Made by a program: the position numbers and the translations under genes. From Escherichia coli (GTDB lineage: Bacteria > Pseudomonadota > Gammaproteobacteria > Enterobacterales > Enterobacteriaceae), in assembly GCF_003334785.1 (NCBI RefSeq), contig NZ_QOWV01000009.1: a stretch of DNA of 64,000 nucleotides. One strand, written 5' to 3'. This document shows, piece after piece, positions 17,870 to 18,746 of this stretch (position 1 is its first letter; each line of letters begins with the position of its first letter). A model generated the notes under the pieces. It did not search any database. It was not told where the DNA came from and saw only the letters and a program-made list of their open reading frames with translations.

Positions 17870-18664
17870 ATGGATCTGTTGTACCGGGTAAAAACGCTTT
17901 GGGCCGCGCTGCGCGGTAATCATTACACCTGGCCTGCCATCGATATCACCCTCCCCGGCAATCGCCATTTTCATCTGATTGGCAGTATTCATATGGGTAG
18001 CCACGATATGGCTCCCCTGCCCACCCGTTTGCTCAAAAAGCTCAAAAACGCCGATGCGCTGATCGTCGAGGCGGATGTTTCCACCAGCGATACGCCTTTT
18101 GCTAATTTGCCTGCCTGCGAGGCGCTGGAAGAGCGCATTAGCGAGGAGCAACTCCAAAACCTGCAGCACATTAGCCAGGAGATGGGCATTTCTCCCTCAC
18201 TCTTTTCTACCCAACCGCTGTGGCAAATCGCGATGGTTCTTCAGGCGACGCAGGCACAAAAACTGGGGCTGCGGGCAGAATACGGTATCGATTACCAGCT
18301 ATTGCAGGCGGCGAAGCAACAACATAAACCCGTGATTGAACTGGAAGGGGCTGAAAACCAGATTGCCATGTTGCTCCAGCTCCCTGACAAAGGACTGGCG
18401 CTGCTGGACGATACGCTGACCCACTGGCATACCAACGCACGGTTGCTGCAACAAATGATGAGCTGGTGGCTGAATGCACCGCCGCAAAATAATGATATAA
18501 CGCTGCCCAATACGTTCAGTCAGTCGCTGTACGATGTGCTGATGCATCAGCGAAATCTCGCCTGGCGGGATAAATTACGCGCCATGCCGCCGGGGCGATA
18601 TGTGGTCGCGGTCGGTGCACTACACCTGTATGGAGAAGGGAATTTGCCGCAAATGTTGCGCTAA
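17870..18664 (+). CDS. ybaP: TraB/GumN-family protein of unknown function
   Basis: ORF track 264 aa; TraB/GumN-type fold inferred from sequence family recollection. Confidence 0.85.
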   Translation: MDLLYRVKTLWAALRGNHYTWPAIDITLPGNRHFHLIGSIHMGSHDMAPLPTRLLKKLKNADALIVEADVSTSDTPFANLPACEALEERISEEQLQNLQHISQEMGISPSLFSTQPLWQIAMVLQATQAQKLGLRAEYGIDYQLLQAAKQQHKPVIELEGAENQIAMLLQLPDKGLALLDDTLTHWHTNARLLQQMMSWWLNAPPQNNDITLPNTFSQSLYDVLMHQRNLAWRDKLRAMPPGRYVVAVGALHLYGEGNLPQMLR

Positions 18665-18746
18665 AAAAATGGCCAATATCGCTATTGGCCCGTCAAAGAG
18701 GAATTTCATTTTTTTATTATTATGCCGTCACTTTAAGCGACGGTGT
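18663..18746 (-). ncRNA. chiX: ChiX (MicM/SroB) Hfq-dependent small RNA
   Basis: Minus strand reads ACACCGTCGCTTAAAGTGACGGCATAATAATAAAAAAATGAAATTCCTCTTTGACGGGCCAATAGCGATATTGGCCATTTTTTT with 5' stem-loop and intrinsic terminator; lies between ybaP and ybaK in the opposite orientation. Confidence 0.85.

Follow-up and report, generated by a model that had tools for sequence, protein, structure and literature searches.

The minus strand of a 64-kb stretch of Escherichia coli DNA (64,000 nucleotides of contig NZ_QOWV01000009.1, assembly GCF_003334785.1; hereafter the window) carries at positions 18663..18746 what is almost certainly the gene for ChiX, a small RNA (sRNA) of the Enterobacterales that acts in trans by base pairing and depends on Hfq (Class II). 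The gene at this site was already known and nothing about it is new; since 2009, ChiX has been a textbook case of a constitutive sRNA that is controlled by an mRNA decoy. A first-pass annotation, made from the letters of the window alone, had placed an 84-nt minus-strand element in the spacer between ybaP and ybaK and named it ChiX (MicM). Its coordinates and strand proved exact, both against the Rfam model RF00368 and against the annotated K-12 gene b4585.

Identity and transcription of chiX

An Rfam cmscan of positions 16000..22000 returned RF00368 (sroB) at 18663..18746 (-), covering model positions 1-83 of 83 with a score of 82.1 bits (gathering score 44, E=1.7e-11). The same match was recovered when the whole window was scanned at gathering thresholds, and that scan contained no second copy of RF00368. 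The 84 nt are identical (84/84) to the annotated chiX non-coding RNA (ncRNA) b4585, 'small regulatory RNA ChiX', at NC_000913.3 507204..507287, where the gene lies between ybaK and ybaP on the strand opposite to both; this location is also stated in PMC3384567. Identity to NC_000913.3 is exact over the 5 kb flanking chiX, and the 1.1 kb around the gene are 100% identical in many E. coli genomes, K-12 MG1655 included. Reverse-complemented, the whole window equals NC_000913.3 461950..525949 (K-12 = 525950 - window position) except for nine substitutions, none of them in or near chiX. The window copy thus shares with b4585 the same 84 nt, flanking genes, 2-nt ybaP overlap, promoter and terminator, and differs from it in nothing. 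Among complete E. coli genomes, the 84 nt occur as a single copy in 5423 of 5426, and identity is at least 99% in 5012 of those that carry a single copy. No evidence contradicting the ChiX identity turned up, and the name given at first pass is borne out by the covariance-model match, the full identity to the curated K-12 gene and the position next to ybaP and ybaK; the element aligns to the reference ChiX both in Rfam and in the K-12 annotation.

The gene, its predicted promoter and the segments of its RNA (numbered from the 5' end) are as follows.

18663..18746 (-), chiX (= sroB/micM/rybC; b4585), 84 nt, +1 at the A of 18746 and 3' end at 18663
18776..18781 (-), predicted chiX -35 hexamer TTGGCA, from the promoter scan
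18753..18758 (-), predicted chiX -10 hexamer GACAAT, ending 6 nt before +1, from the promoter scan
18725..18743 (-), 5' hairpin, nt 4-22, 8 bp with a 3-nt loop, from the minimum free energy (MFE) and centroid folds and from covariation
18703..18724 (-), A/U-rich single-stranded linker, nt 23-44, from sequence and fold
18689..18702 (-), seed, nt 45-58, of which UCCUCUUUGACG pairs with the Shine-Dalgarno region of chiP and CUCUUUGACGGG with the chbB-chbC spacer
18671..18690 (-), intrinsic terminator hairpin, nt 57-76, 8 bp with a GCGA loop, from the terminator scan and fold
18663..18669 (-), U7 tail, its last two U overlapping the ybaP stop codon on the opposite strand

On the minus strand, the promoter scan found one promoter-like site, TTGGCA-17-GACAAT (18781..18753, 9/12 matches), and a pattern scan independently reported the terminator at 18690..18671. 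These motifs suggest that chiX forms a transcription unit of its own, and the transcript is known from the literature. In a Term-seq study of K-12, a very strong 3' end was mapped to 507287(+) and listed as 'primary chiX, antisense ybaP'; its scores were 445,279 and 552,306, compared with about 1,400-55,000 at neighbouring sites (PMC7815308, supplementary file 1). This position corresponds to window position 18663 on the chiX strand, and it provides the minus-strand transcript that the first-pass annotation had predicted. ChiX Northern blots and delta-chiX strains were also reported (PMC7815308).

Some reads in a study using RNA interaction by ligation and sequencing (RIL-seq) bore the label 'ybaP.EST3UTR', according to which the RNA would be a fragment derived from the 3' untranslated region (UTR) of the ybaP mRNA, but the authors of that study re-assigned them to ChiX themselves. 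ChiX is encoded on the other strand from ybaP and is preceded by a conserved predicted promoter of its own, and the Term-seq 3' end on its strand was classed as antisense to ybaP. An origin from the ybaP 3' UTR is refuted by the strand, and we give it practically no chance.

Fold and conservation across the Enterobacterales

The single-sequence fold of ChiX has an MFE of -24.1 kcal/mol (z = -3.88 against dinucleotide shuffles). The 5' stem-loop, A/U-rich linker and intrinsic terminator described at first pass are all present by fold and pattern scan. Within the linker, nt 26-37 form four A-R-N triplets in succession, a putative binding site for the distal face of Hfq. The sequence modules of a Class II sRNA are both there: a tail of six U or more (here U7) after a GC-rich terminator hairpin and the single-stranded A-R-N repeat. 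In the MFE and centroid folds, nt 32-39 (18708..18715) also pair with nt 77-84 (18663..18670), so that neither of the presumed Hfq-binding segments would be accessible while the RNA is free. We did not adopt this pairing of the linker A-run with the U-tail as structure, since it consists of low-complexity A/U sequence and both segments are presumed Hfq sites. A bidirectional terminator was likewise rejected, because CGTCAAAGAGG, and no T-run, comes after the hairpin on the plus strand.

To place ChiX among its homologs, one genome per species was scanned for the core AAATTCCTCTTTGACNGGCC, which gave at least 120 loci, nearly all from Enterobacterales; all species-locus counts given here and below (115, 111, 102, 99 and so on) are drawn from this set, among the matches listed. 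In 107 of 115 usable loci, ChiX is flanked by ybaP and ybaK on the opposite strand, and the exceptions are mostly loci truncated at an end (L050, L084, L093, L096, L122). The two Proteus homologs (L069 9456..9535 and L095 609..688) are not adjacent to these genes: in L095 the ybaP and ybaK matches both lie more than 2 kb from ChiX, and in L069 there is a partial ybaP match about 2.1 kb away and no ybaK match. The 5' domain of Proteus ChiX is also different, being longer and having another hairpin, and the Rfam score is 66.4 bits for L069. Nine distant loci from Klebsiella, Yersinia, Hafnia, Serratia, Rahnella, Proteus, Erwinia and Pantoea scored 61-86 bits with the Rfam sroB model, which did not match the control locus L064. 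This locus, from a Lindowbacteria metagenome-assembled genome, is the remaining exception to the flanking by ybaP and ybaK and was set aside as a chance match: it has no nearby ybaP or ybaK, no terminator, and no match to our own covariance model or to Rfam sroB. Taken together, the ChiX/sroB homologs of other Enterobacterales (Citrobacter, Enterobacter, Klebsiella, Serratia, Yersinia, Pantoea, Erwinia, Hafnia, Proteus) share the seed, the terminator hairpin, the U-tail and the period-3 adenines, as well as the ybaP-ybaK position except in Proteus; they differ by a few nt in linker length and have diverged in the sequence of the 5' hairpin.

The sequence of the 5' hairpin is almost wholly different between genera, and its pairing is retained. 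When each sequence was folded separately and free of any alignment, 102 of 102 distinct homologs formed a 5' hairpin of at least 5 bp (median z = -2.7). We also aligned 99 loci with a covariance model of our own, built on 15 sequences from Escherichia and Citrobacter; each locus gave one match, and L064 and the rest of the window gave none. In the resulting structure-guided alignment of 99 species, 95.1% of cells held standard pairs, compared with 79.9% in shuffles (0/500 reach this value) and 21-50% in slid-partner controls. Double-sided compensatory changes were seen at 8/8 pairs of the 5' hairpin and at 3/8 pairs of the terminator (11/16 in total; 99 homologs). The terminator stem was paired in 99.4% of cells, and its three compensated pairs show A-U to G-C changes. 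The alignment-free folding agrees with these covariation counts.

Outside the RNA, the exact promoter pattern TTGGCA-N17/18-GACAAT occurs in 49 of 99 homologous loci. Most aligned upstream regions of the Escherichia/Citrobacter/Enterobacter/Klebsiella group carry the identical promoter block TTGAGCGACAAT, with single-base variants in L010 (TTAAGCGACAAT) and L103 (GCGCGACAAT), and Serratia, Yersinia and Rahnella have the conserved upstream block TTGCTACCCT in its place. Three linker adenines spaced 3 nt apart, A27, A30 and A33, show at least 97% conservation. Because these positions fall outside the search key, the signal is real, and their spacing fits the A-R-N motif, which is the recognition motif of the Hfq distal face.

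Pairing with chiP and chb

The first-pass annotation had described ChiX as the repressor of the chitoporin gene chiP, a role that agrees with the perfect complementarity of the seed to the chiP ribosome-binding site in the K-12 genome. ChiX nt 45-56 (UCCUCUUUGACG) form 12 uninterrupted Watson-Crick base pairs with CGUCAAAGAGGA in the chiP leader, at a site that covers the Shine-Dalgarno sequence and ends 7 nt before the AUG (locus L005 3316..3327, NC_000913.3). None of 2000 shuffled ChiX sequences reached a run of this length, and the seed-restricted duplex has an energy of -21.0 kcal/mol compared with a mean of -11.4 for shuffles (0/500 reach). The same site corresponds to positions 80-91 of the annotated 98-nt ChiZ (b4808). 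The second partner is the spacer between chbB and chbC, with the following site.

Locus L006 5273..5284 (NC_000913.3), ChiX-pairing site in the chbB-chbC spacer, perfect 12-bp run

Here, ChiX nt 47-58 pair with CCCGUCAAAGAG and the pairing extends to nt 38-59. The 12-bp run was reached by 2/2000 shuffles, and the duplex energy of -28.2 kcal/mol by 0/500. By these energies, ChiX is predicted to pair more stably with the decoy than with the target (-28.2 vs -21.0 kcal/mol), which is consistent with titration and with a decoy that out-competes the target. The longest-perfect-run statistics and seed-restricted energies replace an unrestricted RNAduplex calculation of full ChiX against 200-nt targets, which was discarded because its duplexes, at -38 to -46 kcal/mol, were over-extended and made no biological sense.

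The physiological part of this picture is taken from the literature. ChiX constitutively represses chiP, and chb mRNA induced by chitobiose titrates ChiX and promotes its decay (PMC4098024). The sponge ChiZ and an involvement of Rho have been reported (PMC7815308). ChiX is a Class II Hfq sRNA that is made without specific induction (bioRxiv 10.1101/2021.08.13.456236), and its Hfq binding and Hfq dependence are likewise published (bioRxiv 10.1101/2021.08.13.456236; PMC7815308).

Together with the features found here, this leads to the following account. The sigma-70-type promoter TTGGCA-17-GACAAT would start chiX at 18746, and the intrinsic terminator would end it at 18663. The 5' hairpin may protect the 5' end of the RNA, while the A-R-N linker and the U-tail would dock ChiX on the distal and proximal faces of Hfq. 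By pairing with the Shine-Dalgarno region of chiP, the seed (nt 45-58) would block translation of the chitoporin; the literature adds that the pairing also promotes termination by Rho inside chiP. Once the chb operon is induced by chitosugars, its chbB-chbC spacer would pair with nt 38-59 of ChiX, a stretch that overlaps the chiP-pairing one and is longer, and this pairing would titrate ChiX, trigger its decay and de-repress chiP. ChiZ, a fragment of the chiP 5' UTR, would act as a second sponge. We infer that this mechanism operates in the near-K-12 strain from which the window comes.

Several caveats apply to the support for the assignment as a trans-acting Hfq-dependent sRNA. That nt 41-55 and 57-60 are 100% conserved is a product of the search pattern and not independent evidence; as the species set was gathered with that very pattern, we discarded seed conservation as an argument. 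Runs of at least three A-R-N triplets are only modestly enriched, at 59% compared with 34% in composition-matched shuffles. When the 102 homologs were aligned with MAFFT and folded with RNAalifold, only 6 pairs of the terminator came out; the 5' hairpin was lost because its hypervariable stem is misaligned by MAFFT. The alignment used for the covariation counts was itself fitted to the structure by the covariance model, and the counts lean towards that structure. Finally, complementarity to chiP and chb was computed on NC_000913.3, as both targets lie outside the window.

Compared with the other Class II sRNAs MgrR, CyaR and McaS, ChiX has matching A-R-N repeats and a matching terminator U-tail, whereas sequences, seeds and targets are unrelated. 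Unlike these RNAs, ChiX is expressed with no dedicated inducing signal, and its main control comes from RNA decoys, not from transcription. ChiZ and the chbB-chbC spacer, which carry the complement of the ChiX seed and lie outside the window, are partners of ChiX and not its relatives.

Neighbouring genes and the rest of the window

The annotated neighbours of chiX and the open reading frame (ORF) that covers its opposite strand are as follows.

17870..18664 (+), ybaP, TraB/GumN family protein, convergent neighbour, from the ORF list and annotation, stop codon TAA at 18662..18664
18868..19347 (+), ybaK, Cys-tRNA(Pro)/Cys-tRNA(Cys) deacylase, divergent neighbour, NCBIfam NF007951 (329.9 bits) and annotation
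18600..18884 (+), spurious 94-aa ORF from the mechanical ORF list, spanning the ybaP 3' end, the strand antisense to chiX and the ybaK 5' end

The placement in the ybaP-ybaK spacer is right as to the neighbours, apart from a 2-nt overlap between the ChiX 3' end (18663) and the ybaP stop codon. There is no overlap with ybaK, whose ATG (18868) lies 121 nt past the ChiX 5' end. In the first-pass annotation, the T-run of the terminator was said to abut the ybaP stop; the two are indeed adjacent, but they overlap by 2 nt instead of abutting. ChiX was also called antisense to its neighbours, which holds for the strand and not for the RNA, as there is nearly no overlap: mature ChiX shares just 2 nt with ybaP, in contrast to the extended opposite-strand overlap of a cis-antisense RNA. 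Across the species set, the ybaP stop and the ChiX tail share 1-3 nt in 81 of 111 loci, and exactly 2 nt in 68 of them; the stop codon is TAA in 100 of 111 loci (L007-L126). Since the 1-3 nt overlap recurs in this way, it is old. Its striking stability probably reflects nothing more than a T plus an A-run complementary to the U-tail.

This recurrent overlap could be taken to mean that ChiX acts mainly in cis, with convergent or read-through RNA antisense to ybaP regulating ybaP and the regulation of chiP in trans being secondary, or, in a variant of the same idea, with ybaP read-through RNA neutralising ChiX. A Rho termination region reported at K-12 507468(+) (window ~18482 (-)) points in the same direction; it is antisense to ybaP and lies 181 nt downstream of the ChiX 3' end. 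Its listed Rho score of 3.71 derives from a study in which reads downstream/upstream of the site numbered 22/1492 in untreated cells and 115/2100 with bicyclomycin (PMC7815308, supplementary file 2). The ratio of ratios that we calculated from these counts is 3.71 and reproduces the listed score. By the same published counts, however, read-through into ybaP antisense amounts to about 1.5% of the ChiX signal, and the mature ChiX overlaps ybaP by no more than the 2 nt described above, with a TAA stop that arises trivially from a T plus the A-run. Moreover, the most conserved single-stranded segment of ChiX is the trans seed, which is perfect for both chiP and chb, and Proteus retains ChiX more than 2 kb from ybaP and ybaK, which implies that the RNA needs no such neighbourhood. 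We therefore consider a predominantly cis-acting ChiX very improbable. A functional cis-coupling that is layered on the trans function and underlies the conserved stop/U-tail overlap and the Rho region seems a little less improbable, and is still a long shot. If it were true, chiX read-through or convergent transcription could, for example, tune ybaP, or ybaP read-through RNA could sponge ChiX as a perfect antisense.

The ORF at 18600..18884 raises the question of whether the region codes for a real 94-aa protein, in which case the RNA-like features would be incidental. The ORF exists and has an ATG start, and in 107 of 114 species loci the plus strand can be read through the ChiX interval in one frame or more without meeting a stop; a stop-free stretch of 84 nt is, however, unremarkable. 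At its ends, the ORF takes in 65 nt of the ybaP 3' end and 17 nt of the ybaK 5' end, in frames that differ from those of the two genes. An NCBIfam search, in which ybaK scored 329.9 bits in the same run, found no family for it, and it is annotated in neither K-12 record, curated or from the Prokaryotic Genome Annotation Pipeline (PGAP). Already in E. albertii (L008), L111, L116 and Citrobacter, its tblastn 'homologs' are split across frames, so that the similarity is one of conserved DNA and not of a conserved frame. With no NCBIfam match, no K-12 annotation and a frame that is broken even within Escherichia, the ORF is spurious as judged from its sequence, just as the first-pass annotation had suspected when calling it an artefact. 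The coding explanation is effectively refuted, and its chances are minute.

Two further elements lie in the divergent spacer between chiX and ybaK. A conserved block at 18782..18820 (-), upstream of the chiX -35 hexamer and with the consensus AAAAAATAGTACCATCTTGCGCAATAGT, holds an A8 run at 18803..18810 (-57 to -64 from the chiX +1) and may be an UP-like element or, on the opposite strand, the promoter of ybaK. The plus strand carries a terminator-like hairpin at 18821..18844, CAGGCGTATGCTTG and then CTTCGTTTTT, that leaves only about 24 nt before the ATG of ybaK. This hairpin is weak (5 bp) and may be due to chance; it might terminate transcripts that read through from ybaP, or be part of the leader of ybaK.

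Elsewhere in the window, tandem repetitive extragenic palindromic (REP)-type elements match Rfam naRNA4 (RF02564) at 17085..17365 and 24426..24503, one group in the copA-ybaQ spacer and another near 24.4 kb, with 74-89 bits on the minus strand and the plus strand also scoring. The dnaX programmed frameshift element (RF00382, 96.8 bits, 32530..32594 (-)) and the 4.5S RNA of the signal recognition particle, ffs (RF00169, 68.1 bits, 49398..49494 (-)), are at their expected K-12 positions. The nine substitutions relative to NC_000913.3 are at 7313, 28521, 50189, 50262, 51178, 54717, 57471, 58491 and 61068, and there are no other differences; by coordinate conversion they fall in ybbO, adk, ybaY (two), tesB, mdlB, decR, cof and queC. 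The genome of the window is a very close relative of MG1655 and not identical to it.

Existing knowledge of ChiX is unchanged by this finding. Automatic annotation still misses the gene: in the PGAP-annotated E. coli RefSeq records that we inspected (e.g. NZ_CP032667.1 and NZ_AP018488.1), only ybaP is listed under chiX and no ncRNA feature is given, a spurious 94-aa ORF covers the site, and RIL-seq reads were labelled as ybaP 3' UTR. The recovery of chiX to the exact base from sequence alone is a useful positive control.

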